From a virus: 64,000 nucleotides of DNA. The DNA lies in IMG/VR virus record IMGVR_UViG_3300032291_003205, positions 1 to 64,000 of that record; one strand, written 5' to 3'. Positions 9,934 through 56,150 of the stretch are shown here, in pieces; the first letter of the stretch is position 1; each line of letters begins with the position of its first letter. The translations under genes and the position numbers were made by a program. A model generated the notes under the pieces. The model saw nothing but the letters and a program-made list of their open reading frames with translations. It made no database searches and had not been told where the DNA came from.

Positions 9934-10344
9934 TGGCTTAAAGAGATAACAACAACGAAATCAGCTTGGTCTTCTTTTACAGAAGACCAGCAAAATTCGT
10001 TTAATTCTTACATGGTTCACCGATTTGTTAGTATGTATGAGGAGTATACCGAGGTTGCGAATTATGGCCAAAGGATACCATATCCTGAAAAAGAAAAAAC
10101 CTATAAATACTACTGCCATATGTTACCTAAAAAGAATGTCTTCCTTAAGTACGTGAAAAGTTCACGTAAAAAATCAAACGAACAATTGTTACATCACATT
10201 GCTAATCATTTTACAGTATCATTAGGTGAGGCAGAAGAATACATTGAGTTATTAAAAAAAGCCGGAGTAGAACAAATCCTTGAAAAATCAGGGGTTGACG
10301 AAAAGGAAATAAAAAAGTTACTTGCTTCTATAAAAGGAAATTAA
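9889..10344 (+). CDS. Probable clamp loader small subunit (T4 gp62-like)
   Basis: IFDWLKEIT...FNSYMVHRFVSM...LPKK pattern; proximity to the gp44-like gene. Confidence 0.6.
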   Translation: MVTNGNIKNSFTIFDWLKEITTTKSAWSSFTEDQQNSFNSYMVHRFVSMYEEYTEVANYGQRIPYPEKEKTYKYYCHMLPKKNVFLKYVKSSRKKSNEQLLHHIANHFTVSLGEAEEYIELLKKAGVEQILEKSGVDEKEIKKLLASIKGN

Positions 10345-25544: not shown

Positions 25545-25877
25545 ATGGTAGCAGAAATCACATTAAACAACTCAGACGAATTCCAAGAATTGGTAGACCA
25601 AAAAGATTTTAGAATATCTAAAGCAATTGTAGAGGGTATTTTAGATAACATTAACTCAAAGAAAAAACACGTACATGTTTTATCCGTTACTTGTCTTGAA
25701 GACGATCAGATATATGATATTACAGTCGAACGTAGGCACTTTGCTGAAACCTTAGAGGAAAATTTACCTTACTACATTAGAGAGGAACAATATGAGGATT
25801 GTCGACGTATTGTAAGCACAATTAATGAGTTAAAAAATCCTATAGTTAAACAAAGAGGTAGACCAAAGAAATCTTAA
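25545..25877 (+). CDS. Hypothetical protein with C-terminal RGRP (AT-hook-like) tail
   Basis: EEQYEDC and KQRGRPKK. Confidence 0.65.
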   Translation: MVAEITLNNSDEFQELVDQKDFRISKAIVEGILDNINSKKKHVHVLSVTCLEDDQIYDITVERRHFAETLEENLPYYIREEQYEDCRRIVSTINELKNPIVKQRGRPKKS

Positions 25878-27924: not shown

Positions 27925-28874
27925 TGAGTAAGTTTCAACTAGTAAATTACAATTTTGATGATCAAAGAATAGATTTTAGAATCAATCATCCTGTTAAAGA
28001 CGGTTATATTATAACTAAGGATATAGATTTAGATACTACTATCTATAAAATGAAAATATGGAATGTAACTCCAGGTTTATTTGCTTTCTTTATCCCTACA
28101 CCAAGACATGGTTTTGATTTTCAAAGAGAGGATTTTGGTGGATTTACTTTTGAACTTATTGATGAGGGTGTTGTCTTAGAAAGACAAATCCTTCGCTTTA
28201 GGTACACTAACATGTATCAACACAAACAAAACATAAACGACTTTTACCATCCCGTATTTGTTAATTATAGGGAGTTTTTTGTTTATGATAGGTATAAAGA
28301 ATTCAATTTGGAAGGATGTGAAAATGTTATTGATGCTGGAGCTAGTGTAGGTTTGTTTACACAATATATGTTAAATAAAGGAGCTAAACAAGTAGCATCT
28401 GTTGAGTGTGATGATAGAAGTATAGTAGCTTTATTTAGTAACTTTGTTAGTAATCTAAAAGTTAAAATCATTGGAATGGCTTTATCAGATATTAATGGTG
28501 AAAAAGAATTATACTGGAAAGAAGATAATCCATTAGTAAATAGTTTAGATATTGATGGTAGTGAGTTTAGTACTCATGTTAATCCTAATTCTAAAACAGT
28601 TAAAACTACAACTTTAGAAACATTAATCAATAATTTAAATTGGGATAAAACCGATTTATTAAAAATAGATATTGAGGGAAGTGAATGGGACGTTATTAAT
28701 ACTACTCCAGATGATACTTTTCAATCTATAGATAAAATATTATTAGAATATCATTGGCCAAAAGATAGATTACAATCTGTTATTTCTAGATTCCAATCAC
28801 TAGGGTTTAAACATATGTTTGAATCTGGATGTGATGGAAGTGAGGAAAACGGCACTGTATTCTTTTCAAAGTAA
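27924..28874 (+). CDS. FkbM-family methyltransferase with an extra N-terminal domain
   Basis: VIDAGASVG, LLKIDIEGSE, LEYH. Confidence 0.88.
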   Translation: MSKFQLVNYNFDDQRIDFRINHPVKDGYIITKDIDLDTTIYKMKIWNVTPGLFAFFIPTPRHGFDFQREDFGGFTFELIDEGVVLERQILRFRYTNMYQHKQNINDFYHPVFVNYREFFVYDRYKEFNLEGCENVIDAGASVGLFTQYMLNKGAKQVASVECDDRSIVALFSNFVSNLKVKIIGMALSDINGEKELYWKEDNPLVNSLDIDGSEFSTHVNPNSKTVKTTTLETLINNLNWDKTDLLKIDIEGSEWDVINTTPDDTFQSIDKILLEYHWPKDRLQSVISRFQSLGFKHMFESGCDGSEENGTVFFSK

Positions 28875-30113: not shown

Positions 30114-30623
30114 ATGGCAACCAGAGGACAAATCGCTTACTTAGCAAACCCAAACACAATATTTTCAATATACAACCACTATGATTCTTACCCAGAACAT
30201 TTAGGTACAGCATTAACTACTTACTTTAATTCAGATAGTGATGCAGAAGACGTAGTAATGAATGGTGGTGATATTAGATTCATTGATGATGATGGAACTG
30301 TAGATCGTTTTGATAAAGGTGGAGCAATACAAATTAAAGGCGAAGAACCAGAAGATTTATTTAATGAGTTGTACTCACACTCCGATAGTGCTTCCGCTGA
30401 TTATGTTTATGTTTGGTTAGAAGATAAATGGATTACTCTTCCTATAAACAAAGGTAGAGAATACTTTGTAGGTACTTTACTTGATTCAATCAGAAAATCA
30501 GAACCAGCTATGGAAGCTTATCACATTGGTGGGAATAGGGAAGTAATTACTAAAGAAGACGAAGACGAAATGAATGAAATTTTTGTTCGTCAAATGAAAT
30601 ATAAAGCAGGTATTATTAAATAA
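30114..30623 (+). CDS. Conserved phage protein (MATR...Y.HYD.YP..LG family) with an MNE...MKYKAGIIK tail
   Basis: Motif recognition; ATATTTATA upstream. Confidence 0.7.
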   Translation: MATRGQIAYLANPNTIFSIYNHYDSYPEHLGTALTTYFNSDSDAEDVVMNGGDIRFIDDDGTVDRFDKGGAIQIKGEEPEDLFNELYSHSDSASADYVYVWLEDKWITLPINKGREYFVGTLLDSIRKSEPAMEAYHIGGNREVITKEDEDEMNEIFVRQMKYKAGIIK

Positions 30624-32759: not shown

Positions 32760-32889
32760 CGAGGAACAAGACACATTGTACACTAAGTTAATGAGTATTC
32801 TAATGCTTATGGAGAAGGATTATTACTATAAGGCTACATTAGAGTTGGAATCGTTAATAGAACATATTAAATTTGGACAAGTAAAATAA
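32752..32889 (+). CDS. Small hypothetical protein (45 aa)
   Basis: Manual translation; overlapping stop-start with the next gene. Confidence 0.55.
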   Translation: MTNEEQDTLYTKLMSILMLMEKDYYYKATLELESLIEHIKFGQVK

Positions 32890-33194
32890 TGGAAAAAAGA
32901 GGACAATTAGAAAAACTAAGATACAATTTTGACACAGCCAAAGGTGTTTTTGTTAAAATGAATGATAAAATGTATCGAGTAACAGAACGTGACTTTAGAT
33001 CATTTAATGGTGAAAGATTCATATTTGAAAAAGTAGATGGTGAGTATCAACATGTACCTTACAAAGGTCCTCTTTACTACCACAACACAAATAAAAAATG
33101 TAAAGAACCAATTGGTATAAACAAGGTTCAATACGCTCATGATTTACCTTGGACTTCAATTAGAAGACCACATGAAAACTATTTAGTTGATTAA
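32889..33194 (+). CDS. Hypothetical protein
   Basis: ORF track. Confidence 0.7.
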   Translation: MEKRGQLEKLRYNFDTAKGVFVKMNDKMYRVTERDFRSFNGERFIFEKVDGEYQHVPYKGPLYYHNTNKKCKEPIGINKVQYAHDLPWTSIRRPHENYLVD

Positions 33195-33235: not shown

Positions 33236-35761
33236 ATGGCTAGTCTACTCAACAATGCTTCACTCTTATTAAATCCTGCGGGTAGTATAATTGCTTACGA
33301 GGAGGATAAAATATTTTCTGTGTTACCATCAAATGGTACCGGTGATTTTACTTTTTCAGGAGGTGATGGAGGTACTAGAGTAAATCAACAAGGGTATATT
33401 GAACAGACACCTGCTAACTTTATGCTTAACAGTGGTACTACTTGGACTCCTTTTAATGTTACAGTTACTACAGGTGTAACTGATCCTGTAGGTGGTACGG
33501 GAGCTTATACTATAGGTAGTATAGCTTCTGGAAATATTACTGATTATGGTAATAAAGGAAGTAATACTATGTCTCTTCCTGCAGGTACTGTTATTACTTT
33601 TTCAATTTCTATGAAAGGTTCAGGTACTATTGCTACTTACCTTGAAAGAGCATTAGCTGGTACTTATTGGTTTGATGTTAAAACTCATACTTTAAGCAGT
33701 GAATGGCAGGTATTTACCCACACTTATACAGTTCCTACAGATGCTAGTGGTGTTGGAGTTTATGTAGGTAATGCTACAGGAACAACCGCTACATCTGTTG
33801 ATATAGCATTTCCAATGTTAAATTATGGCTCAACAGCTAAACCATACCAACCAACAACAGACCGCTTAAATTATCCTCGTATAACTTATCAAAATGGTAG
33901 AGGTGCTTTATTACAAGAACCACAGAGAACAAATGTAACAACTAATAGCCAAACTATAAGTGCAGGTACCGGTACTACTGTTTCTTTGGATAGTGGAATA
34001 TCTCCTGATGGAACTCAAAACGCTGATAAACTTATAGAAGATACAAGTACAGGAACTCATATAACAACATTTGGAGGTTCTTTAGGTGGTTCTGTAGATT
34101 CAAGTACTTTTTGTGTTAGTATCTTTGCTAAAGCTGCTGGTAGAACACGTTTCATAATATTCGACAATAATCAGGGTGCAGGTGCTGCTATAAATGTTTT
34201 TGATTTAGGTAATGGTACAAAAATTAGTGGGAATGGAACTATTGAAAATTATGGAAACGGGTGGTATAGGTGTATTATTTTTCCATCAAAAACTGATAAT
34301 ACAACAGCTAATATACAAATTAGATTAATAAATACAGGAACAAATGATAGTTACACTGGAGATGGATCTAGCGGTATCTTTTTTTGGGGTAAACAAATCG
34401 AAGTAGGTGAATTTCCAACCTCATACATCCCAACAACATCAGCAACAGTAACTAGACCTATAGACCAATTCTTTAAAAATGATTCACCAGCTTTAAGTAC
34501 TACTAGTTGGACATTTTATATGTCTGGAGTTAATATAGGAAAAAATCAAAATTCTAGTGGGAATCCTATTGATGCTGTAAACTGGAGTTTTGATAGTGGT
34601 GCTGGTCCTTATGGGGCAAACTCAATACATAACTACAATAATACAGTGTATTATTATGATACTGTTAATGGGGCAGCATTTTTAGGGGCAATTGGTAGTA
34701 CAACTACAAAATTTGCAGTTACTAAAAACGGAACTACATTTAAATTTTTTAGAGATGGAGTTTTAACTACAACAAGTACACTTTCTTTAGCAAGTAATGT
34801 TTGGGATTCATTTAGAATGTATGGTGATGTAGATGGCCAAGGCCAAGCATTTTCAAATAACCCATCTACATTAGCTATTTTACCCTCAGCTTTATCAGAT
34901 TCAGATGCACAATCACTAACCACAGTCCGCTCAGGTTCAGGTGGTAACATCTCATACTACGGACCATACACAATCCATACATTCACAGGCTCAGCAACAT
35001 TCACTCCTTCATTTACAGGTCCTGTAGAGGTACTTGTTGTTGCTGGAGGTGGTGGAGGAGGTTCTGGTTTTAATAGATCTGCCTGTGGTGGTGGAGGTGG
35101 TGCTGGAGGTTTACTTTATGCTTCATCCTATGGTGTATCTGCTGGTACTGGAATAACTGTCACTATTGGTGCCGGTGGTGCTGGTGGACCTGCAGGTACA
35201 GGAAGCCCTACAGGAGATGGTTCTAATGGCTCTAATTCAATATTTGGAGGATTAACATCTATTGGTGGTGGTGGAGGTACTACTTATTTTGATACTAATG
35301 GTAAAAATGGAGGTTCTGGAGGTGGAGCTGGAGGTGCTGGTGGTTATACTCCAGTAGGCGGACAAGGAATACCAGGCCAAGGAAATAATGGCGGAAACCA
35401 AGTTGGTTCAGGACAAAGTACAGACACTACATCTTGTGGAGGTGGTGGAGGTGCTGGAGCTGTAGGAGCAAACGGAGTTACCTCTCAAAGAGGAGGTAAT
35501 GGTGGTATTGGTCTACCTTACTATATTTCAGGATTTTCTACTTATTATGCTGGTGGTGGTGGTGGAGGTGCTTCACAAGTAGGTGGTGGATTTGGAGGTC
35601 TTGGTGGTGGAGCCAATGGAGGTAATTTAGATAGTAATGGATCTAGTGGTGTTAATTATACAGGTGGAGGCGGAGGCGGAGCTAGTTCAGGGGTTGGAGT
35701 AGCAGCAACAGCAGGTGGTACAGGAGGTTCAGGTATAGTAATAGTACGTTATTTAACTTAA
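33236..35761 (+). CDS. Virion fibre/spike-like protein: beta-sandwich domains plus C-terminal glycine-rich domain
   Basis: GDFTFS..TRVN..GYIE, EPQRTN, YGNGWYRC, PTSYIPT, VEVLVVAGGGGGG...GSGIVIVRY. Confidence 0.8.
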   Translation: MASLLNNASLLLNPAGSIIAYEEDKIFSVLPSNGTGDFTFSGGDGGTRVNQQGYIEQTPANFMLNSGTTWTPFNVTVTTGVTDPVGGTGAYTIGSIASGNITDYGNKGSNTMSLPAGTVITFSISMKGSGTIATYLERALAGTYWFDVKTHTLSSEWQVFTHTYTVPTDASGVGVYVGNATGTTATSVDIAFPMLNYGSTAKPYQPTTDRLNYPRITYQNGRGALLQEPQRTNVTTNSQTISAGTGTTVSLDSGISPDGTQNADKLIEDTSTGTHITTFGGSLGGSVDSSTFCVSIFAKAAGRTRFIIFDNNQGAGAAINVFDLGNGTKISGNGTIENYGNGWYRCIIFPSKTDNTTANIQIRLINTGTNDSYTGDGSSGIFFWGKQIEVGEFPTSYIPTTSATVTRPIDQFFKNDSPALSTTSWTFYMSGVNIGKNQNSSGNPIDAVNWSFDSGAGPYGANSIHNYNNTVYYYDTVNGAAFLGAIGSTTTKFAVTKNGTTFKFFRDGVLTTTSTLSLASNVWDSFRMYGDVDGQGQAFSNNPSTLAILPSALSDSDAQSLTTVRSGSGGNISYYGPYTIHTFTGSATFTPSFTGPVEVLVVAGGGGGGSGFNRSACGGGGGAGGLLYASSYGVSAGTGITVTIGAGGAGGPAGTGSPTGDGSNGSNSIFGGLTSIGGGGGTTYFDTNGKNGGSGGGAGGAGGYTPVGGQGIPGQGNNGGNQVGSGQSTDTTSCGGGGGAGAVGANGVTSQRGGNGGIGLPYYISGFSTYYAGGGGGGASQVGGGFGGLGGGANGGNLDSNGSSGVNYTGGGGGGASSGVGVAATAGGTGGSGIVIVRYLT

Positions 35762-35762
35762 T

Positions 35763-35963
35763 ATGGATATAATAGAACAATATTTAGGGTTATGGGGTGT
35801 AGATGTAGCAGTTAAAAAATTACGTCCACATGCTCAATTTGAACTTTACAATACAACATTTACTAAGTGGGTTGATCCTACAGGAACACAACCTCCTACT
35901 TGGGAAGAAATAAACAAACAAATAGAAAAAGATAAAGAATTATGTCATACTTTGCACACATAA
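35763..35963 (+). CDS. Small tail-fibre-associated protein
   Basis: AVKKLRPHA...W.DP...PPTWEEI. Confidence 0.55.
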   Translation: MDIIEQYLGLWGVDVAVKKLRPHAQFELYNTTFTKWVDPTGTQPPTWEEINKQIEKDKELCHTLHT

Positions 35964-36280
35964 ACGAAAACAGTGTTGTTACTACCGTTATAGTAGCAAC
36001 TCAAGAATTTATTAATACAGGTAGTGAAGGCGATCCTGCTAGTTGGATAGAGACATCTATAGACGGTAGTTTCCGCAAACAATATGCGGGTATAGGTTAT
36101 ACCTATGATGCTGAAGCAAATGTATTTATATGTCCTCAACCTTACCCATCTTGGGTTTTAGATTCAAATTATGATTGGGTTGCTCCTGTACCTTATCCTC
36201 AAGATGGTAAGTGTTATGTGTGGGATGAGACAATTATTAACTGGGTAGAAGTACCTTGTATGCCAACTGGATCAATTTAA
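35942..36280 (+). CDS. Tail-fibre assembly-like protein, companion of Gly-rich domains
   Basis: RKQYAGIGYTYD...PQPYPSW...WVAPVPYP.DG..YVWDE. Confidence 0.65.
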   Translation: MSYFAHINENSVVTTVIVATQEFINTGSEGDPASWIETSIDGSFRKQYAGIGYTYDAEANVFICPQPYPSWVLDSNYDWVAPVPYPQDGKCYVWDETIINWVEVPCMPTGSI

Positions 36281-36281
36281 T

Positions 36282-36671
36282 ATGCATAACTACCAATATA
36301 GAAAATATATGATGAGTGATTTATCTCTATTAAATGAGATAACTCAAAGTTATACTAACCCTATTACAGAGGAAACTAGTTTTACTTACACTCAAACAGT
36401 TTATGTTATGGGTCCAATTTGTGAACAATGGGTAACAGGTAGTTCTCCTATGGGAATGCCTATTATGTCTTGTTCTTTATATTCTACAGCCTCAGCGGTA
36501 GATATTTTATGGGATCAAGAACCACTACCTAATTTTAGCTCAAGTGAGGTATGGCCTTTTCCAGGTACAGAATTAACTACATTTGGTAATGCAATGCCTA
36601 TTTACCAAAAAGACTATTGTGAGCGTTTTTATTGTCCTACAGGTTCAGGTCCAATACCTCCACCTCTTTAA
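36282..36671 (+). CDS. Hypothetical protein of the structural cluster
   Basis: ORF track. Confidence 0.65.
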   Translation: MHNYQYRKYMMSDLSLLNEITQSYTNPITEETSFTYTQTVYVMGPICEQWVTGSSPMGMPIMSCSLYSTASAVDILWDQEPLPNFSSSEVWPFPGTELTTFGNAMPIYQKDYCERFYCPTGSGPIPPPL

Positions 36672-36689
36672 TATTTATAATAAACTAAT

Positions 36690-38402
36690 ATGCCAAATCC
36701 AGTTGCTGTTAATGATCTAAGTCCTATATCTGGGAGCTTACAAACCTCTAGGATAAGTTATGCTGTAGATACAGCAGGTAAAGATTATGGTCAAGACTAC
36801 AACGGTACAACTTGGTACTCAGATATTCCACAAAATGGAAGTCAATATACAATTATTTCAGATAATTATACAGCTAACTATTATGTATCTCGTTCAAATG
36901 CCGAAGGTGCTTATGTTGAAGGTGGTTTACCAGCAGTAGATGAATATTCTGCTCCTGTGTTTTGGTTAACAGCAGGTACTTCAAGTTTAGATATTATAAC
37001 TATTGTAAATGGTTTACCTGATAGAAGAGGACAAATACCATTTAACTCTGGTTCTCAAGCATTAAATTGGGTTGCCTCAAGTAGTAATTATTTTGCTGTT
37101 GGACCTCCATATGAACAAATTGATGCTGATTCTTTAAAATTATATTTAAATGCAGGTCAAATTATTTCTTATCCAACTACAGCTTCTACTTGGTATGATA
37201 TAAGTGGATATAGTTCAAAAGGTACATTAATAAATAGTCCTGCATTTAATTCAAATGGTTGGATTGATTTTGATGGTACTGACGATTATGTTAATTTTTT
37301 CAATAATAGTCTTTTAAATATAGGTACTAGCAATTTTTCCCAAACAGTTACTTTTTTAATCAACTCAGTTACAAGTGGTCAAAGAATAACTTTTAAAAGA
37401 CTAGGAGGTTTAGGATATGGGTATTCTATGTTTATAGATGGAACCGGGGCACTTGGATTTGAAATTCTTACACCATCTACTTCTATTACTGCTTACGGTG
37501 GATACCCTTCAACAGGAAGATGGCATCAAGCAACATTTTCATTAAATAGATCAGGAAATGGTATTTTATATCTTGATGGGGTTGCAAGTACTCCTGTAAG
37601 TTTTAGTTCATTAGTTGGGTTAGATATTTCTAATAATGAGGATTTTTGTTTAGCAGCAGTAAGTCCTGCTATTGGTGGAGGTGCTTATTTAAATGGAGAT
37701 TTAGCTACAGTAGCTTCATATGCCAAACAATTATCAGCAGCAGAAGTAGCTCAAAACTACTACGGTGGTCCAATTGTAACAGGTAGTTTATTATTTGCTA
37801 TAGATGCAGGTAATTTAGTATCATACCCTAAATCAGGAACAGCAGTCTACACATTAACAGGAAGTGTTAACGGTACTTTAACAAACGGACCAACATTTAA
37901 TCCTACTTTTGATGGGTGTTGGAATTTTGATGGTACAGACGACTATATTCTACTAGGCTCAAGTATTACTCCAGGAAACGGTAACTGGACATTATCAGCA
38001 TGGGTAAGAGGATTTGGAGGAGTAGTAGGTAATACATCAGGAGGTCCTGTAGCTAGTGGTTTTGGGATATTTAGTACCGGAGGTAATTATAAAATTTTTT
38101 ATGCTAACTATGATGGCTCTTGGAATTATAATTACGGAAATACTACTTTAAATCCTAATGAGTGGTATTTTTTAACTTGGGTAAACTATACAGGAAATAC
38201 TATGAAAATGTATGTTAATGGGATAGCAGACTCATCAGTATTTAACTCTCTTACCTCTAATGGTGGGCCTGTTGATGCTGTAGGAGGAACACAAGGAACA
38301 CCTGGAGGGACATTTAATGGAAATATAGCATCAGTTCAGTGGAACATAGGTACTGCTTTTACTGATGCTCAAGTCTTACAAAACTATAACGCAACAAAAT
38401 AA
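36690..38402 (+). CDS. LamG/concanavalin A-like repeat virion protein (anchor plus 2 modules)
   Basis: Modules LDAG..SYP..G..W...FDGTDDY...QNY. Confidence 0.85.
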   Translation: MPNPVAVNDLSPISGSLQTSRISYAVDTAGKDYGQDYNGTTWYSDIPQNGSQYTIISDNYTANYYVSRSNAEGAYVEGGLPAVDEYSAPVFWLTAGTSSLDIITIVNGLPDRRGQIPFNSGSQALNWVASSSNYFAVGPPYEQIDADSLKLYLNAGQIISYPTTASTWYDISGYSSKGTLINSPAFNSNGWIDFDGTDDYVNFFNNSLLNIGTSNFSQTVTFLINSVTSGQRITFKRLGGLGYGYSMFIDGTGALGFEILTPSTSITAYGGYPSTGRWHQATFSLNRSGNGILYLDGVASTPVSFSSLVGLDISNNEDFCLAAVSPAIGGGAYLNGDLATVASYAKQLSAAEVAQNYYGGPIVTGSLLFAIDAGNLVSYPKSGTAVYTLTGSVNGTLTNGPTFNPTFDGCWNFDGTDDYILLGSSITPGNGNWTLSAWVRGFGGVVGNTSGGPVASGFGIFSTGGNYKIFYANYDGSWNYNYGNTTLNPNEWYFLTWVNYTGNTMKMYVNGIADSSVFNSLTSNGGPVDAVGGTQGTPGGTFNGNIASVQWNIGTAFTDAQVLQNYNATK

Positions 38403-39955
38403 TGAGTAGATTCGAAGGTCCACAAGGTATAATAACAAATGGTTTAGTATTAAACCTAGATGCAGGCGATCCGGATTCATACACTCGCTCACAACCTCCA
38501 TATGTTGAGGTATTAGTTGTTGCTGGTGGTGGTGGAGGTGGAACATATGCAGCCGGAGCTGGAGGCGGAGCAGGAGGTGTAATATACAACAGTGCATACC
38601 AACTAACATCAGCTGCTGCTGTTACTGTTACTGTAGGTGCTGGAGGAAATGGGGGTGTGTGGAGTGTTAGTAATTCTACCCAAGGATCTAATAGTGTATT
38701 TGGTTCATTAACTGCTGTCGGTGGAGGATATGGAGGAACAGGTTGGATTACCCAAGCTGGAGGTAATGGCGGCTCTGGTGGTGGTGGTGGAGGGTATGAT
38801 GGAAGTAACGGCACATTTACTGTTGCTGGTGGTACAGGTACAGCAGGTCAAGGATTTAACGGAGGTTTAGGTAGAGGCATTAGTGGAAACAGAGGAGCAG
38901 GAGGTGGTGGAGGTGGAGCAAGTACTCAAGGTGGAGACTCTACTACAAACTCTGGAGGTAATGGTGCTAATGGCTTAGCATTTTCAATATCAGGTACATC
39001 AACATACTATGGTGGAGGTGGAGGTGGAGGTGATTACGGTTCTGCTAATGGAGGTCAAGGCGGTTTAGGTGGTGGAGGAAACGTTAGTGGTGGCAATAGC
39101 AGTGGAATACCAGGATACCCCGGTACAGCAAACACTGGTGGTGGAGGTGGTGGTTCTAGAAGCGCTACCTCAGATAGTTGGAATGGGGGTAATGGTGGTT
39201 CAGGCATCATCATAGTACGTTACCCAGGCCTACCAGCAGCAACCGGAGGTACAATTACATATGTAAACGGATACACAATCCATACATTTACCTCTAGTGG
39301 AACATTTACTCCATTTTTATGGAATGATGTGAGTGGGAATGGAAAAAATGCTACTTTTACAAATGGTGTTCCTAGTGATAGTTATGTAAACTACATTAAA
39401 GGAGGTTATATGAGTGGTTTTTCCACTGATGATTATTGGAATGTAGGAAATACTCCTTACGGAGTAATACCAACTGGAACTTCTACTAGAACAATATTTA
39501 CTGCTTTTAGAACCCCTACCACTCTAAACTCAAACATTTATTACCATATATTTCATTACGGAACAGCTAATACTGACAATGCTTTTGGCTTAGCTATATA
39601 TGGTAATTTACTCAATAATCACACATGGGCTGGTAATTCTAATTTTTCTAATTTTACCTTAAGTGCTGATACTGATTATATAGTAGCTGTAAGATTTAAT
39701 AATAGTAATTCTCCTAGAAATAATTTCTTTATAAATGGAACTTTTGGAACTACAGGATTTGGCCAAGGCAAAACAGCAGATTATGCTATTAGTACAGGAA
39801 CTAGTAATGAACCTAGAGTTGGGATGCGTATTGATTCCCCAACAGAAGGTCTAAATAACGGTAGAGTGTATGCTCTATATATCTATAATAGTTATTTATC
39901 AGATGCTGAAATTACTCAGAATTACAATGCTTTAAGGCCAAGGATAGGAATTTAA
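38402..39955 (+). CDS. LamG-like protein with an inserted glycine-rich domain
   Basis: GLVLNLDAGDPDSY-[Gly-rich]-WNDVSGNG...QNYNALR. Confidence 0.85.
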   Translation: MSRFEGPQGIITNGLVLNLDAGDPDSYTRSQPPYVEVLVVAGGGGGGTYAAGAGGGAGGVIYNSAYQLTSAAAVTVTVGAGGNGGVWSVSNSTQGSNSVFGSLTAVGGGYGGTGWITQAGGNGGSGGGGGGYDGSNGTFTVAGGTGTAGQGFNGGLGRGISGNRGAGGGGGGASTQGGDSTTNSGGNGANGLAFSISGTSTYYGGGGGGGDYGSANGGQGGLGGGGNVSGGNSSGIPGYPGTANTGGGGGGSRSATSDSWNGGNGGSGIIIVRYPGLPAATGGTITYVNGYTIHTFTSSGTFTPFLWNDVSGNGKNATFTNGVPSDSYVNYIKGGYMSGFSTDDYWNVGNTPYGVIPTGTSTRTIFTAFRTPTTLNSNIYYHIFHYGTANTDNAFGLAIYGNLLNNHTWAGNSNFSNFTLSADTDYIVAVRFNNSNSPRNNFFINGTFGTTGFGQGKTADYAISTGTSNEPRVGMRIDSPTEGLNNGRVYALYIYNSYLSDAEITQNYNALRPRIGI

Positions 39956-39977
39956 TTAATATTTATAATAAAATAAT

Positions 39978-40259
39978 ATGACAACACAAGAAGAGTATAT
40001 TAACAGACGTTTTGTAATTTTCAACGTTACAGAACTCCCCCTTATTGACTTTAATCAAGTCTACGAAACCTCAATTGACACAGTCCGTAAATCAGTTGAT
40101 GGAACTCAAACATTTGTAAAATACGATATACCAGAACCTTCATCAGTTACTGCTTTAACTACAAAATCTATAGAATACACATATGATGAGATTTTGCAAA
40201 TTTTAGCTACACCAGAGTGGACAAACCCAGAACCATTCCCAACCGGTTCAATAGGTTAA
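39978..40259 (+). CDS. Conserved small LamG-associated phage protein
   Basis: IDFNQVYETS..TVRKSVDGTQTFVK...EW. Confidence 0.7.
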   Translation: MTTQEEYINRRFVIFNVTELPLIDFNQVYETSIDTVRKSVDGTQTFVKYDIPEPSSVTALTTKSIEYTYDEILQILATPEWTNPEPFPTGSIG

Positions 40260-40263
40260 TTGA

Positions 40264-42585
40264 ATGTCTAGGCCTATAGCATATAATGCTTCGGGTCCTT
40301 TGTCTGGTAGTATTAGAGGAGGATCTGTTAATTACACTGTAGATAGTGGTAATAGGGATTATACTACCTTTGCCTCTAAAAAATGGGTACCATCAGCAGA
40401 TGGGGTTGCCCCAATTGTATTTGTAACAGATACTTATACTCAAGGGTTTGAACTTAATCCTAGTTTAGCTGTACCTTTATTTTTTTCATGTAATGGAACA
40501 GGTTCAGCAGCTATTTTATACACGGCAAATCGTATACCGGGTTCACCAGGTAATTATAGTGATGCAAATGTTGCCTTAAATGATTTAATAAATGCTAGAG
40601 GTTATTTTATTTTAGAATCAAATGATCCGTTTGAAGGAATAGATGCTGATGGGTTGGCTTTAGATTTAGATGCTGCTAAAATGTCTTCTTATCCTCAAGT
40701 AGGTACTAACTGGCGTGATTTAAGTGGTAATGGGAATACAGGAGCTTTAACTAATGGACCAACTTGGAATTCAAATGGGTGGTTTGATTTTGATGGGATT
40801 GATGATTATGGTTTAGCCAGTAGAACACCATCTATCTCTCCTACTTCCGGGATTACCCAAGAAGCTTTAGTAAATTTTGATGCCGATAGTGCAGTTATAA
40901 TAGGATTACAGTATGGAGCTAGTTCAGATAACTCTTATGCTTTTTGGAGAGATGGTGCTAATTGGAATGGTCTAGTTAAAACATCCAGCGGAACTCAAGT
41001 TATACAATATAATCAAGTATTAACTACTGGAAGATGGATTCATTTTTTACATACCTATAGTGGTTCAACTCAATATCTGTATGTAAATGGAACTCAAGTT
41101 GCCTCATCCGGAGTATCTGGTGGTGATATTATATATGATTCTAATAATAATGTAGTAGTAATTGGAGGTGATTTTAACTCAGGATATAATGCTGGATTAG
41201 CCCTACCTCTCAATGGTAAATTAGCCAAAGTAGGTATATACAGTAAAGGATTATCTCAAACAGAAATTAATCAAAACTACTTCGGTTCACCAATAGTCAC
41301 AGACGGTCTAGTATTTGCTGTTGATGCTAATAATATAGTATCATATCCTAAATCAGGAACAGCATGGTATAATTTAACTGGTAGTGTAGGTACAGGTACA
41401 TTAACTAACGGACCTACATTTAACATAAATAATGGTGGTTCTATTAGATTTGATGGAGTTGATGATTTTGTAAATATCCCATATAATTCTTCTTTAGATA
41501 TTCCAACTGCTATTACTGTTGAAGTATGGGTAAAATATGCTTCTCAAGGAGAAATCGGTAGTGGTGGAAGAACATACTCCGTACTTAGTTATAAAGGATA
41601 TCCATGGACATGGTTATTAGAGGATATAAGTGGACAATTTAATTTTAGAATTTCAACAACATCCGATGGAGATAGTCGTCTTGATTCTAATTACTATCAT
41701 GGGGTTGAACGTTGGGATCATGTAGCTTGTACTTATAACGGCTCAACTCAATCTATTTATGTAAATGGAATTTTACAAAACAGTAAAAGTTTAACAGGAA
41801 CTATTATTACAAGTGGAACCACAATTGAATTAGGAACATATGGTACAGGTGATTACAGTTTTAATGGATGGTTAGCCAATCACAGAGTATACAACAGAGC
41901 ACTCTCAGCCGCCGAAGTTCAACAAAACTACCAAGCCGAACAATACAGATTTGAAACACCAGCAGGCCCAGCAACAAATGGATTATTATTATATTGGGAT
42001 GCAGGTAATTTAGATTCCTACCCAGGAACAGGTACTACAATTTATGATTTATCAGGAAATGGCAATAATGGTACTTTAGTAAATGGAGTAGGATATAATC
42101 AAACAAATGGTGGTGTATTAACTTTTGATGGTGTAGATGATGGTGTGTATTTAACCTCACTAAATTTATCAAGTACTAATAATACAGTAATGGGTGCTGC
42201 TCGTTATACAGGTACTACTCCTCATGGAAGGATGATTAGTGCTTATAATAACAACTGGTTAATTGGGTGTTGGAATAACTCAACTGAAAATTATTATGCT
42301 CAAGGTTGGGTATCACCGGTTCAAAATGGAGCTAATGATACTAATTGGAGAATAGTAACTGCTTTAGGAGATGTAGGAGCTGATAGTTATACTTCATATA
42401 TAAATAATACCCTTTCAGCTGGCCCTAATAATGGTGGATCACAAGGACCTGATGGTATTTTCATTAGTCCATCATCTGAACCAAGTACAGGCCAATTTAG
42501 TTTCTTATTAGTGTACAACAGAGTACTTACCGCAGCAGAAATGACTCAAAACTACAATTACTTTAAAGGAAGATTCGGACTCTAA
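40264..42585 (+). CDS. LamG repeat virion protein (anchor plus 3 modules)
   Basis: Three DA..SYP..G..W...FDG.DD...QNY modules. Confidence 0.88.
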   Translation: MSRPIAYNASGPLSGSIRGGSVNYTVDSGNRDYTTFASKKWVPSADGVAPIVFVTDTYTQGFELNPSLAVPLFFSCNGTGSAAILYTANRIPGSPGNYSDANVALNDLINARGYFILESNDPFEGIDADGLALDLDAAKMSSYPQVGTNWRDLSGNGNTGALTNGPTWNSNGWFDFDGIDDYGLASRTPSISPTSGITQEALVNFDADSAVIIGLQYGASSDNSYAFWRDGANWNGLVKTSSGTQVIQYNQVLTTGRWIHFLHTYSGSTQYLYVNGTQVASSGVSGGDIIYDSNNNVVVIGGDFNSGYNAGLALPLNGKLAKVGIYSKGLSQTEINQNYFGSPIVTDGLVFAVDANNIVSYPKSGTAWYNLTGSVGTGTLTNGPTFNINNGGSIRFDGVDDFVNIPYNSSLDIPTAITVEVWVKYASQGEIGSGGRTYSVLSYKGYPWTWLLEDISGQFNFRISTTSDGDSRLDSNYYHGVERWDHVACTYNGSTQSIYVNGILQNSKSLTGTIITSGTTIELGTYGTGDYSFNGWLANHRVYNRALSAAEVQQNYQAEQYRFETPAGPATNGLLLYWDAGNLDSYPGTGTTIYDLSGNGNNGTLVNGVGYNQTNGGVLTFDGVDDGVYLTSLNLSSTNNTVMGAARYTGTTPHGRMISAYNNNWLIGCWNNSTENYYAQGWVSPVQNGANDTNWRIVTALGDVGADSYTSYINNTLSAGPNNGGSQGPDGIFISPSSEPSTGQFSFLLVYNRVLTAAEMTQNYNYFKGRFGL

Positions 42586-44969
42586 TGCCACAACCAGTAT
42601 CATATAACCCCGGAACACCAGTATCAGGTAGTATACAAGAAAACAGTATATCATATGTTGTTGATGGTCAAAACCGTAACTACAGAGGTGGTTTCGGAGG
42701 ACTATCTTGGATGAGTGAAGTACCGGCGGCCAACAATGTTATTTTTATAGGTAACTCTGTTAGTTTAGGTAGAGGACCAGCTAACATACCTTTATTTTAT
42801 CCTTCATATAATAACAGTGCGGCCAATATTATTTATGCCGCTAATACATTACCGGGTTCACCTAGGAATTTTACAACTACCGCAAGTGCTTATAACTGGG
42901 CAGTAACAAATAATTTCTTTATTAATAATTCTGATAATCCTATTCCTAGAATTGATGCTGATAGTATGTTTTTGTGTTTAGATGCTGAACAAGCAACTTC
43001 ATTCCCACAAACAGGAACTAGTTGGTATGATATGAGTGGGGCAAATTATACAGTTACAGGTACTAATAATCCTACTTGGAATTATAATAATGGTAAATCA
43101 TATTGGCAATTTGATGGTACAGATGATTATTTTGCATTTTCCTCAACACCCCCAATAGCTCAAAGCACATATACATCAACTGTTGAAATTTGGGCTAAAT
43201 CAATTAATAATGTTCCAACATTTCAAGTAATGTTTGGTGGTGGTGTACAAAATACAAACCAAGGATATTATTATGGTTTTAGACAAGATAATGCAAATTT
43301 TATGTATGCTTTCTATGCTAATGACCAAGATGGATCTACACCAAGAGATAATAGAGTTTGGAATCACTATGTGGCTGTTTATAATCAAGCCACTGGAGCA
43401 AGATACAGGTATTTTAATGGGGAATTATTATCTCCATCCCAAGCATCGGGAGTAACTGCTACTTCAGCTAATAGTTTTACTATTGGTGCTTTTAAAGATG
43501 TTAATACTGGACCTCAATACTTCTATAATGGGTATATTTCTAAAGTTAGAGGATACAGTAAAGAATTAACTCAAGCTGAAATTAAACAAAATTATTTCCA
43601 AGGTAATATTGTTACTGGTAGTTTAGTATTCATGATGGATGCTAATAATATAATTTCATATGAAAGTTCAGGTACCCTAGTCTATTCATTAACAGGTTCA
43701 TTAAGTGGTTCATTAATAAATGGAGTTGGATATAATACAGGAAATGGAGGCAGTTGGGTATTTGATGGAACAGATGATTATATTAATTTTGGTCCTTTAG
43801 CAACAAATTCACCATTATCATTTACAAATGGTAATTTTACATTAGAACATTGGATTAAACCAACATCTCTTCAAAGTAGTACATATTTTGGTTTAACTAA
43901 TATAATATTATCTAAAGGTCCAGCTAGTACATTCAATTATGCAACCCAAGTTGTTGATGCTACAAGTGTTAGGTTTTATCATAGAGATAATAATGAAGGT
44001 TTATCTAATAATACATTTACAGTTCCTAATTTATTAAATGCATGTACCCATCTAGTGTTTGTTATTAATCCAGCAGGAACTCAAATTACTTTATATATGA
44101 ATGGTATTTTACAGCAAACACAAAATTTAACTGGAAATCCTATAACCCCCTATACAAATGATGAACTACTTATTGGTAGTCACTATGGACAGCAATATAC
44201 TAACTTTATTGGTAACATTTATACAAATAGAATATACAGTAGAGCACTCACCTCAGATGAAGTCCAACAAAACTACCAAGCAACCAAAGATAAATTCCTA
44301 GGTGAAAACATAGTAACAAACGGATTAGTACTTAATTTAGATTCTGCTAATAAAGATTCATATCCTGGAACAGGAACAACATGGTATGATTTAAGTGGAA
44401 ATGGAAATAACGGTACTTTACAAAATGGACCCTTGTTTATACCTAATCAAAATAGTGGTGTTTTATCATTTGATGGAGCAGATGATTTTGGGACAGCTGG
44501 TAGCTTTTTTACATATCAAGCATTCACAATTAATTTATGGATTAGACCAGGTTCATCTCAAACAACATATGCTGATATAATTGATAATAACCATACAGGA
44601 ACCCAGAACTGGGTATGTCAACAAAATGAAAATAACCTAAACCAATATGAATTTGCGGTACTTGGTGGGGGAGGTGCTTTTAGTACAACAGGATTATTCA
44701 CATTAACTTCAAATATATGGGTTAATTTAACTTTTACTTATGATGGTGACAAAGTAAGAGGATATAATAACGGATCTTTATTTGGAACTGGTATTTCTCT
44801 AGGTACTACTATTAACTATGTTGCTCCTACTTTTAACATAGGTAGATGGAATCTTGGAGGTAGAAATTGGAATGGACAGTATGGTATAATAAATGTTTAT
44901 AACAGAACATTATCTGCAGCAGAAATAACTCAAAACTATAATGCTGCCAAAACAAGATTTGGCCTTTAA
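42585..44969 (+). CDS. LamG repeat virion protein (anchor plus 3 modules)
   Basis: Three modules; ends QNYNAAKTRFGL. Confidence 0.88.
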   Translation: MPQPVSYNPGTPVSGSIQENSISYVVDGQNRNYRGGFGGLSWMSEVPAANNVIFIGNSVSLGRGPANIPLFYPSYNNSAANIIYAANTLPGSPRNFTTTASAYNWAVTNNFFINNSDNPIPRIDADSMFLCLDAEQATSFPQTGTSWYDMSGANYTVTGTNNPTWNYNNGKSYWQFDGTDDYFAFSSTPPIAQSTYTSTVEIWAKSINNVPTFQVMFGGGVQNTNQGYYYGFRQDNANFMYAFYANDQDGSTPRDNRVWNHYVAVYNQATGARYRYFNGELLSPSQASGVTATSANSFTIGAFKDVNTGPQYFYNGYISKVRGYSKELTQAEIKQNYFQGNIVTGSLVFMMDANNIISYESSGTLVYSLTGSLSGSLINGVGYNTGNGGSWVFDGTDDYINFGPLATNSPLSFTNGNFTLEHWIKPTSLQSSTYFGLTNIILSKGPASTFNYATQVVDATSVRFYHRDNNEGLSNNTFTVPNLLNACTHLVFVINPAGTQITLYMNGILQQTQNLTGNPITPYTNDELLIGSHYGQQYTNFIGNIYTNRIYSRALTSDEVQQNYQATKDKFLGENIVTNGLVLNLDSANKDSYPGTGTTWYDLSGNGNNGTLQNGPLFIPNQNSGVLSFDGADDFGTAGSFFTYQAFTINLWIRPGSSQTTYADIIDNNHTGTQNWVCQQNENNLNQYEFAVLGGGGAFSTTGLFTLTSNIWVNLTFTYDGDKVRGYNNGSLFGTGISLGTTINYVAPTFNIGRWNLGGRNWNGQYGIINVYNRTLSAAEITQNYNAAKTRFGL

Positions 44970-53266: not shown

Positions 53267-53685
53267 GCAAAGAATATAACGAGTGGTATTGGAGATTGTA
53301 TAGGTGGATAAGATGGGAATTACCTTACCAACACAAGTACATTAAGTACGGAGTTAAAAACCTATATAACTGGTTTTGGATCATTTGGAAGGATAGAGAC
53401 TGGGACCATCATTATATTTTTGAGGTATTAAAATTTAAATTAGAAAAACAAGCCAAACATTTAGGTGAAAGAAATTGGCATGAAAGTTCTAAACGTGATG
53501 CTGAGTTAATGATGACTTGTGTTAGGTTGATTAATAAAATTCAAAATGAAGAATATTATGATGGGCTTTATAATTTAGATGAAAAGTCACCTGAAGTATT
53601 TAAAATAGTAATCGATAGACATAATAAAGCTAGACGTTTATTATTTAAAATTCTGGAGCAAAAAATTGAAAGTTGGTGGGATTGA
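53263..53685 (+). CDS. Conserved phage protein
   Basis: IWKDRDWD...WWD. Confidence 0.75.
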   Translation: MSKEYNEWYWRLYRWIRWELPYQHKYIKYGVKNLYNWFWIIWKDRDWDHHYIFEVLKFKLEKQAKHLGERNWHESSKRDAELMMTCVRLINKIQNEEYYDGLYNLDEKSPEVFKIVIDRHNKARRLLFKILEQKIESWWD

Positions 53686-54357: not shown

Positions 54358-55041
54358 ATGGAAAATCAAAATAGTGTATGTTTTGTAGCTCGTATTAACG
54401 AGATTAAACCAATTGAAGGAGCAGACAATATCGAACTAGCAGTAATTGGTGGTTGGAACTGTATTGTAAAAAAAGGACAATACAAAGTAGATGATTTAGT
54501 AGCTGTAGCAACTACTGATGCAGTCATTCCTCAACATTTGTCTGATGATATGAATGTGACTAATTACTTACGTAAGGGTGGTCGTGTTCGTACTGTTAAA
54601 TTAAGAGGTGTTTATTCCGAGTGTTTGATTATTCCTATTGAAAAAACAGGATTATTCAAATATGAGTTTACTGAAGGTAAAGATTTGATGGACATAATGT
54701 ACATCTACAAGTACGAACCACCAGCAGTTCAAATCCAATTATCTTCAGGTAAGATTAGGAAATGTAAGGAGAATGAAGCTTTTAAAGTGTATTATAAATT
54801 TCCTAATATCAAGAATGTAAACGGTATGTTTAATGAATTTGATGAAGTAGAGGTAACACGTAAAATACATGGCACATCAGCAAGATATGGTATTGTTAGA
54901 AAAGTAGAATTAACTTTATTAGATAAGGTTAAGTTGAAATTAAATAAGATGTTTGGTATTGGAGGTGATAGTTGGAAGTACTGCGATTATGAATTTTATA
55001 TTGGTAGCCATAATGTTGTAAAAGATATACAAGATTTGTAA
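54358..55041 (+). CDS. RNA ligase (DRB0094/Rnl2-like), N-terminal fragment
   Basis: PIEGADNIE, RVRTVKLRG.YSE, KYEPP, motif I KIHGTS; ends just after GSHNV. Confidence 0.85.
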   Translation: MENQNSVCFVARINEIKPIEGADNIELAVIGGWNCIVKKGQYKVDDLVAVATTDAVIPQHLSDDMNVTNYLRKGGRVRTVKLRGVYSECLIIPIEKTGLFKYEFTEGKDLMDIMYIYKYEPPAVQIQLSSGKIRKCKENEAFKVYYKFPNIKNVNGMFNEFDEVEVTRKIHGTSARYGIVRKVELTLLDKVKLKLNKMFGIGGDSWKYCDYEFYIGSHNVVKDIQDL

Positions 55042-55850: not shown

Positions 55851-56150
55851 ACAAACAATAAACAACAAACGGCAGTACAACTAATTATTGAAGCCTTGGA
55901 CATTGAATGCAAATCAAGAGGAATGAATGTGAATTGGGATATGTATTTAGAAATAGAGAAGAAACAGAGGATTAAAGACAAACTTGAATTGTCAGCATCT
56001 TTAGTTAAAAATAAAGAGCAACAACATGAAACTACTTGGATAGCAGCACTTGACTATGGAATTGAAAAACTGAAAGGTTTAAATGATTTAGAATCTAAAG
56101 ATGCTTTTGAACAATACTATGAACAAACCTACGGAGGAGGTGAGCAATGA
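55848..56150 (+). CDS. MTNNKQQTA-family cassette protein ending TYGGGEQ
   Basis: Shared termini. Confidence 0.8.
   Translation: MTNNKQQTAVQLIIEALDIECKSRGMNVNWDMYLEIEKKQRIKDKLELSASLVKNKEQQHETTWIAALDYGIEKLKGLNDLESKDAFEQYYEQTYGGGEQ

Follow-up and report, generated by a model that had tools for sequence, protein, structure and literature searches.

Silent-site bias at the constant joints of exchangeable modules in the tail-fibre-like genes of an uncultured lake phage

In the tail-fibre-like genes of an uncultured lake phage, short patches of C- and A-ending codons are the constant joints of a cassette-type receptor-binding locus, and their bias lies on the 5′ edge of conserved islands. The phage is represented by the IMG/VR record IMGVR_UViG_3300032291_003205 (102 kb, labelled G000), and the analysis covers its first 64 kb, hereafter the window, with a focus on five paralogous fibre genes, g1 to g5. 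Modules bounded by the patches are exchanged among related phages: the joints are ~75–90% identical across at least eight related lake-phage lineages while the cores between them are replaced and reassorted, so that the exchanges must resolve in or beside the joints. The window has a GC content of ~31% and every gene lies on the + strand; the host is probably a Bacteroidota species.

The five genes combine a small number of folds. The products of g2 (36690–38402), g4 (40264–42585) and g5 (42585–44969) share a conserved N-terminal anchor domain of ~150 residues (alignment A1), followed by two LamG modules in g2 and by three in both g4 and g5. Pfam Laminin_G_3 (PF13385) matches the three at 71.6, 143.6 and 188.2 bits, respectively (gathering cut-off 27.6), reporting two stretches in g4, in which three LamG junction motifs are recognised by sequence reading, and three in g5. 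Eight orthologues were available for g4 and five for g5. In g1 (33236–35761, 841 residues) variable beta-sandwich modules precede a C-terminal glycine-rich domain (Gly_rich_2, PF21722, residues 584–839), and in g3 (38402–39955) a glycine-rich module (Gly_rich_2, residues 33–274) precedes a LamG-type C-terminal part; these matches score 83 and 89 bits (gathering cut-off 24.3).

Results

Codon-ending patches in the fibre genes

At third codon positions the five fibre genes are dominated by T (T3 0.48–0.52) and A (A3 0.34–0.37). A sequence-only reading of the window had claimed that short patches depart from this usage at domain junctions, and its base counts are exact: 11 T and 24 C at 41881–41960 against 27 T and 12 C at 41641–41720, and 19 T and 28 C at 34911–35000. 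So are the words that it gave as identical between genes, an 18-mer at 34966 and 39271 and a 17-mer at 41920 and 44265. We assessed the bias with two shuffles, one permuting synonymous codons gene by gene, so that protein sequence and gene-wide codon usage are preserved, and one permuting within strata of amino acid and next base. The excess of C/A endings and the deficit of T persist under both. Four patches are very strong (41881–41960, 34911–35000, 44241–44325 and 39200–39290; p ≤ 0.0008), and at 41881–41960 the within-gene shuffle gives 10 C endings observed versus 2.8 expected and 2 T endings versus 10.3 (p < 0.0002). The patches at 33825–33870, 34415–34460, 41270–41310 and 42530–42620 are nominally significant (p 0.001–0.02), and those at 37730–37780 and 38455–38500 are individually weak (p 0.02–0.1).

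Because the patches had been picked by hand, we also ran a per-gene scan statistic, the gene maximum over 20-codon windows. It flags 34901–35017 (p < 0.001), 41854–41952 (p = 0.002), 44226–44330 (p = 0.016) and 34412–34474, and is significant in three of the five fibre genes of the window versus 5 of 57 other genes. In the complete related record G001 (165.7 kb), a scan p ≤ 0.05 is reached by 15 of 142 genes, including all but one of the five fibre genes, and g1 gives the largest value of that genome. The three 78-nt windows with the most extreme excess of C over G in the 64 kb all lie in or adjoin g1 patches.

Smaller significant C-for-T patches occur outside the fibre genes, at 28182–28262, 30114–30179, 53311–53385, 25545–25604 and 54679–54747; they involve a methyltransferase-like gene, the shared leader of 30114, two gene starts and an RNA-ligase half. 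Two small genes directly upstream of g4 and g1 (39978–40259 and 32889–33194) have the most patch-like whole-gene codon usage in the record, and neither has a PHROG family match. The sequence-only reading had also held that the leaders of gene cassettes share the bias. The 20-mer on which this was based is located at 55851 and 56150, but it occurs in only two leaders, and the mini-gene adaptors, in which GGAGG is present, are not A/C-only; this part of the reading does not hold.

What the joints encode

That the patches lie at module boundaries is confirmed by the Pfam coordinates. The Laminin_G_3 models end at QNY inside patches, and the start or end points of the Gly_rich_2 models (34985, 38498 and 39224) adjoin patches. 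Each joint codes either for the last beta-strand of a module together with the linker or for the flank of a glycine-rich module, with peptides such as YNRALSxxEVQQNY, TSYIPTTSATVTR and GYTIHTFT.

Among the LamG joints, g4J2 (41873–41957) carries the C-terminal motif of the module, YNRALSAAEVQQNYQAEQYRF, and stands out in the shuffle test, in the scan and in the alignments of relatives. Joint g5J2 (RALTSDEVQQNYQATKDKFLGENIVTNG, 44226–44330) is likewise supported by shuffle, scan and the block edges of relatives, and g4J1 (QNYFGSPIVTDGL, 41260–41335) by the shuffle test and block edges. The bias of g2J1 (LSAAEVAQNYYGGPIVT, 37725–37800) is moderate, and the terminal joint of g4 (YNRVLTAAEMTQNYNYFKGRFGL, 42500–42584) runs into the start of g5. 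In g1 the patches code for the ends of other beta-sandwich modules, KPYQPTTDRL at 33825–33870 and TSYIPTTSATVTR at 34412–34474, the latter an isolated conserved island in two relatives, G2 and L066. The strongest patch of the locus, 34901–35017, spans the end of a variable module and the start of the Gly_rich_2 domain (GPYTIHTFT) and contains the top C-over-G window of the 64 kb.

The glycine-rich module of g3 has a patch on either flank. The 3′ flank (PGLPAATGGTITYVNGYTIHTFT, 39190–39290) is strongly biased. The 5′ flank is a C-rich stretch (38441–38499) just downstream of the TAATG in which the g2 stop and g3 start overlap (38400–38404); it is weak in the synonymous test and is the most DNA-conserved piece of the locus, with 58 of 59 bases invariant in nine lineages. 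Synonymous-codon identity over 38402–38530 is 0.95 versus ~0.78 in the anchors.

Mosaic structure of the locus and exchange of modules

Relatives were collected by an IMG/VR exact-word scan with the 18-mer, which returned the related records G001, G002 and G003 (the last two identical over the fibre locus), and by scans with the anchor alignment, which added L057, L060, L061 and eleven lake-metagenome contigs (L062–L072). The 18-mer also matched two unrelated, GC-richer phages (contigs of 44–48% GC), with YTIHTF in frame; the exact-word scan with the 17-mer gave no in-frame match in a LamG context among other phages. Megablast against the deposited phage genomes of INPHARED gave no match. The loci of the relatives are somewhat GC-richer (0.36–0.39 versus 0.33–0.35). 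G001 has an additional open reading frame (248 aa; L053 9297–10043) between g3 and g4, which is not in the window.

Against all relatives the fibre locus is a mosaic, in which islands of 75–96% nucleotide identity alternate with stretches without detectable similarity; g1, for instance, is mosaic relative to G1 (the G001 locus), G2 and L066. Mapping of breakpoints ties the patches to this mosaic, as the homology blocks found in 14 related loci have their 5′ edges tightly clustered on them. In g1, block edges at 33826 and 33839 fall on the patch at 33825–33870, edges at 34383 and 34411 on that at 34415–34460, and edges at 34915 (L066) and 34931 (G2) on that at 34911–35000. The patch at 37730–37780 has edges at 37689–37732, and that at 39200–39290 has the left edges of eight loci, each from a different lineage, at 39179–39194. 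Along g4 and g5, edges at 41234–41269, 41873–41906, 42475–42584 and 44205–44233 accompany the patches at 41270–41310, 41881–41960, 42530–42620 and 44241–44325, respectively. The 3′ edges of the islands are more scattered and mostly lie at the motif FDGxDDY, which has no silent-site bias; yet in G001 one such site is itself a patch.

The association was quantified with an amino-acid-corrected circular-shift test on 20 codons each side of 12 edge clusters. In the 20 codons after the 5′ edges, A and C endings together rise by 0.21 (p = 0.0015) and C endings by 0.16 (p = 0.0009), and T and G endings fall by 0.18 (p = 0.0009) and 0.03 (p = 0.004); the same test finds no bias in the 20 codons before the 5′ edges.

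The cores between the joints differ in the company they keep. In the nucleotide identity matrix of the eight g4 lineages, the LamG1 core (40811–41233) groups only G2 with L066 and L068 with L069, the LamG2 core (41476–41872) is different in all eight, and the LamG3 core (42071–42474) is common only to the window, L064, L065 and L066. These four also share the part of the island just upstream of the LamG3 core (90–94% identity); the g4J2 patch directly before it is only 70–83% identical among them. The cleanest case of replacement is found between L068 and L069, which are 80–93% identical along g4 except for the LamG2 core, replaced from just after FDGTDDY to just before IAN.KVYNKAL. In both contigs the g4J2 patch is the sole piece conserved with the window at that place, with divergent sequence on both sides. 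What is exchanged is a whole domain core of ~130 residues. The repeats seen at the joints are direct and in frame; inverted repeats and an invertase were not searched for.

Two further rearrangements involve these joints. After g4J2, a Cys-containing non-LamG C-terminal domain of ~290 residues takes the place of the third LamG module in L068 (2777–3642) and L069 (2445–3310). In the G2-like contig L060, whose sequence equals that of G2 beyond G2 position 10222 (reverse-complemented L054), a new start codon within the g4J1 joint (~760–800) splits off the LamG modules downstream of it as a gene of their own that lacks the anchor domain.

Exchange has also been recent. The window and G1 differ at 2 of ~2,170 positions over 33937–36103 (L053 3172–5338), a block that covers most of g1 and the next small gene; since the two genomes are otherwise 70–90% identical, this near-identity over ~2.17 kb points to a very recent transfer. 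The wider block of 96% identity begins at 33826, on the first g1 patch.

Nature and maintenance of the bias

Within the patches, the two-fold pyrimidine codons and Ile end in C at 0.63 of conserved and 0.46 of variable positions, versus 0.16 and 0.15 elsewhere. Four-fold codons lose T (0.16 conserved and 0.31 variable versus 0.44–0.48 elsewhere) and gain A, which rises to 72% at conserved and 53% at variable positions (Fisher p = 1e-16 and 6e-6 for these shifts). Gln, Glu and Lys are 100% A-ending, and G endings are down to 0–1%. The rise in C endings is ~3-fold and sharply bounded. The bias is regional and not residue-specific: the 1001 conserved codons outside patches, which include the fully conserved anchors, do not differ from variable ones in their endings (T3 0.53, C3 0.08), and selection for accuracy at conserved residues was rejected on these grounds.

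For comparison with highly expressed usage we turned to the major capsid protein (MCP) gene of G001 (phrog_138), which prefers C endings in two-fold codons and T endings in four-fold codons, so that its agreement with the patches is limited to the two-fold class. Agreement with the MCP preference is strong for two-fold codons and Ile (z = +8.1) and absent for four- and six-fold codons (z = −1.3) and for Gln, Glu and Lys (z = −0.8). The MCP gene uses ACT, GCT and CCT at.73,.72 and.74, the patches ACA, GCA and CCA at.59,.52 and.83. A full match to the optimal codons of the capsid gene was accordingly discarded, and the data are better described as a sense strand that avoids G and T than as "optimal codons". 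In G001 the major head protein gene and the gene preceding it (125335–128379; L086 5335–8379) are strongly translationally biased, with two-fold C/(C+T) values of 0.73 and 0.54 versus a genome median of 0.19, and with T endings in four-fold codons.

The bias looks like a local equilibrium that is maintained in every lineage. Among columns with a T majority, 26 of 56 in patches contain C, versus 96 of 391 other conserved columns (p = 0.001), while C/T changes within patches are balanced, 26:26; with balanced changes and an elevated gain of C from T, the local composition looks like equilibrium, and a decaying foreign relic is not supported. A-to-G changes are rarer in patches (5 of 114 versus 36 of 252). 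As C3 is up and G3 is down to 0–1%, GC-biased gene conversion was rejected as well. Orthologous joints are 77% identical, paralogous joints 54% within a genome and 52% across genomes, and with joints of one genome no closer than those of different genomes, concerted evolution or conversion among paralogous joints was also rejected.

Each junction has its own degree of bias. It is strong at g4J2 and g5J2 in all of the five to eight lineages, moderate at g2J1 and g4J1, and absent at g5J1; two terminal joints in the same structural position are also without bias. Distant members with a QNYYGGPIVT joint have a milder shift in the same direction, in a comparison uncorrected for amino-acid content. 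The shift was not seen in the distant LamG relatives L004–L008, which code the same motif with AAT TAT. At the level of mRNA, folding is weaker than in synonymous shuffles in three of seven patches (z = 2.2 at 41872–41958 and 1.7 at 41260–41334), and no conserved RNA structure was found at the joints.

No oligomer that could act in the manner of Chi was found. The word CAAAACTAC occurs only at the five QNY copies and CCAACAACA occurs twice, the chance expectation; no oligomer is over-represented and oriented genome-wide, and the patches share none beyond the peptide motif. A diversity-generating retroelement was rejected too, as there is no reverse transcriptase (RVT_1 matches nothing in either G000 or the complete genome of its relative G001) and the cassettes differ wholesale and not at adenines.

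Discussion

Judged from its sequences, with their variable segments and chimeric relatives whose exchange points lie in or near the motifs, the locus appears to be a case of conserved-motif-mediated module exchange in phage adhesin genes. In the first 20–25 codons of most joints, silent positions shift from T/G endings to C/A endings, whatever the amino-acid content, the next base or the conservation of the residue. What could the silent positions contribute? We propose that the sense strand is kept poor in keto bases by selection at the nucleic-acid level. Where homology resumes after a divergent cassette, it would then begin with a poorly pairing A/C-rich strand and a G/T-rich complement. 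Strand annealing or invasion may thereby be favoured at the joint, and crossovers would land in frame there. That the codon bias of the joints is selected to favour annealing or invasion is the explanation we prefer, and we hold it tentatively, at somewhat less than an even chance. A more specific version, in which the silent positions are tuned as in-frame crossover sites, the G/T-rich complement would be the invading 3′ tail after a break inside a cassette, and the phage would have a means of swapping receptor-binding modules built into its synonymous sites, seems to us rather unlikely. We count in favour of recombination the shift of four-fold codons to A, opposite to the T preference of the MCP gene. 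The record also encodes a 267-residue RecA-fold ATPase (G000 66649–67452; L089 1366–2169) that adjoins a homing-endonuclease-like gene; its type is ambiguous, with weak matches to DnaB-like helicase, UvsX-like and Sak4-like families.

The sequence-only reading had gone further and taken the patches for crossover hotspots encoded in synonymous sites. This proposal is borne out only in part: the synonymous-site feature at the boundaries of exchanged modules stands, and its link to the 5′ edges is significant, but a causal role of the A/C-rich composition in the crossovers is not supported, and swaps also end at unbiased motifs. Several observations weigh against a role in recombination. One end of the clean LamG2 swap between L068 and L069 lies at the unbiased, T/G-rich FDGTDDY, and g5J1 (43555–43661) is a counter-example, a conserved island between variable cassettes without codon bias in five lineages. 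Neither side of the island 3′ edges is biased in the circular-shift test, whose edge clusters were drawn by eye from BLAST ends of lineages that are non-independent. At ten interior mosaic edges outside the fibre genes no bias was found, and the idea that it is a general property of the mosaic edges of this phage was dropped. Glycine alone keeps GGT in the patches. Patches (0.74–0.83) and anchors (0.77–0.82) do not differ in synonymous-codon identity between lineages, and there is therefore no extra nucleotide constraint. The weak-folding effect is modest and absent in four of the seven patches. Moreover, the 5′ edge of an island is also the start of a conserved peptide motif, so location alone does not prove a hotspot, and because the C-ending two-fold codons are those preferred by the MCP gene (z = 8.1), a translational cause is possible for half of the signal.

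Such a cause could lie in the kinetics of translation and in co-translational folding. Fast and accurate C-ending two-fold codons on weakly structured mRNA would let the closing strand and linker at the end of a beta-sandwich module be made quickly, and the module would close before the next homologous module emerges, which may reduce misfolding between tandem LamG domains; the location at cassette boundaries would then be incidental. The two-fold and Ile codons of the patches (TAC, AAC, TTC and ATC) are indeed the MCP preference. The bias also has a fixed position relative to Pfam domain ends and is found mainly in genes whose homologous domains stand in tandem; each junction has its own bias, which all lineages retain, and other mosaic edges are without it. 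Fast codons have been reported to be slightly enriched at domain boundaries (PMC2965230). The four-fold sites, however, go to A where the MCP gene strongly prefers T, conserved residues elsewhere are unshifted even in the fully conserved anchors, g5J1 and the two terminal joints have no bias despite the same structural position, and distant LamG relatives code the same motif with AAT TAT. On balance we regard a translational origin as doubtful, although it is the leading alternative. It is improbable, in our view, that the odd composition of the joints is a functionless by-product of history, through import, recombination hitch-hiking or locally biased repair, with the composition itself unselected. 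Such an origin would sit well with the lack of extra synonymous constraint, with the somewhat GC-richer loci of relatives, with the in-frame YTIHTF 18-mer in unrelated phages of 44–48% GC and with a bias that is junction-specific and not universal. Yet G-ending codons fall, which fits neither GC-biased conversion nor a simple import from a GC-richer source, the balanced C/T changes with elevated T-to-C gain indicate equilibrium and not a decaying relic, and the near-equal identity of paralogous joints within and across genomes leaves no sign of concerted evolution.

Two other explanations carry far less weight. Rho-loading (rut) sites are C-rich and G-poor, and no other windows of the region combine weak folding with so strong an excess of C over G as the patches do, which might suit unstructured rut-like stretches or a protein-binding site on the mRNA. 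Beyond the peptide motif the patches have no oligomer in common, with CAAAACTAC confined to the QNY copies; there is no conserved structure and no evident reason for such sites at module ends, and an A-rich genome has many other A/C-rich windows. An RNA-level signal of this kind is very improbable. The linkers are rich in Thr, Pro, Gln, Asn and Tyr, residues with A or C in the first two positions of their codons, and amino-acid composition or dinucleotide context could in principle create the pattern. As the third-position bias remains both with the protein sequence fixed and with amino acid and next base fixed, we rejected both versions of this artefact for the strong patches, and its probability is close to negligible.

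The silent-site signature of the locus has sharp bounds, is at equilibrium in eight or more lineages and lies on one side of each exchangeable module, and for this reason the locus offers a natural system for separating recombination-level from translational selection at synonymous sites. If the bias indeed favours recombination at the joints, base composition alone could flag exchange points in the genomes of uncultured phages.

The accepted way for phage receptor-binding proteins to acquire a new host range is the exchange of modules through conserved motifs, and to our knowledge the adhesins of T-even phages have not been described as having a strand-asymmetric signature at silent sites on one flank of their cassettes. 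These adhesins are the closest known system. Glycine-rich motifs flank hypervariable segments in the tail-fibre adhesin genes gp37/gp38 (Tetart et al, 1996, 1998, via Trojet et al, 2011, PMC3157838), and, as in our phage, hypervariable segments alternate with short conserved motifs in or near which the exchange points of chimeras lie (PMC3157838). The folds of our phage are unrelated, LamG_3 and Gly_rich_2 on a shared anchor, the unit exchanged is a whole domain core, and exchange is known from sequences alone. Linker- or boundary-sequence-mediated gene shuffling in phages (the adaptor-joined mini-genes of our phage and the PeSL-type cassettes of T4-like phages) likewise uses short conserved DNA as homology for reassortment, but those linkers are intergenic, with a stop, a ribosome site and a start, and are not A/C-only, whereas the joints of this locus are in frame and biased in their codon endings.

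Codon-usage shifts at protein domain boundaries have been connected with co-translational folding (Saunders & Deane, 2010, PMC2965230). The patches resemble these in the local synonymous change near domain ends and in C-ending two-fold codons like those of the capsid gene; they differ in that their four-fold codons oppose the capsid preference and in that the effect is much larger and found only at swappable modules. RecA of E. coli, for which the preference is known, binds GT-rich single-stranded DNA best (PMC3763553), and the complement of the patches is G/T-rich like such DNA; unlike Chi, the patches contain no defined oligomer and have no oriented genome-wide distribution. Finally, in the antigenic-variation systems of Borrelia (vlsE) and Neisseria (pilE/pilS), short conserved repeats, skewed in their strand composition, delimit the variable cassettes. 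In our phage, in which variation lies between genomes and not within them, we saw neither an archive of silent donors nor machinery dedicated to the purpose, and what is new relative to known module exchange is the signature that silent sites carry on one side of each cassette.

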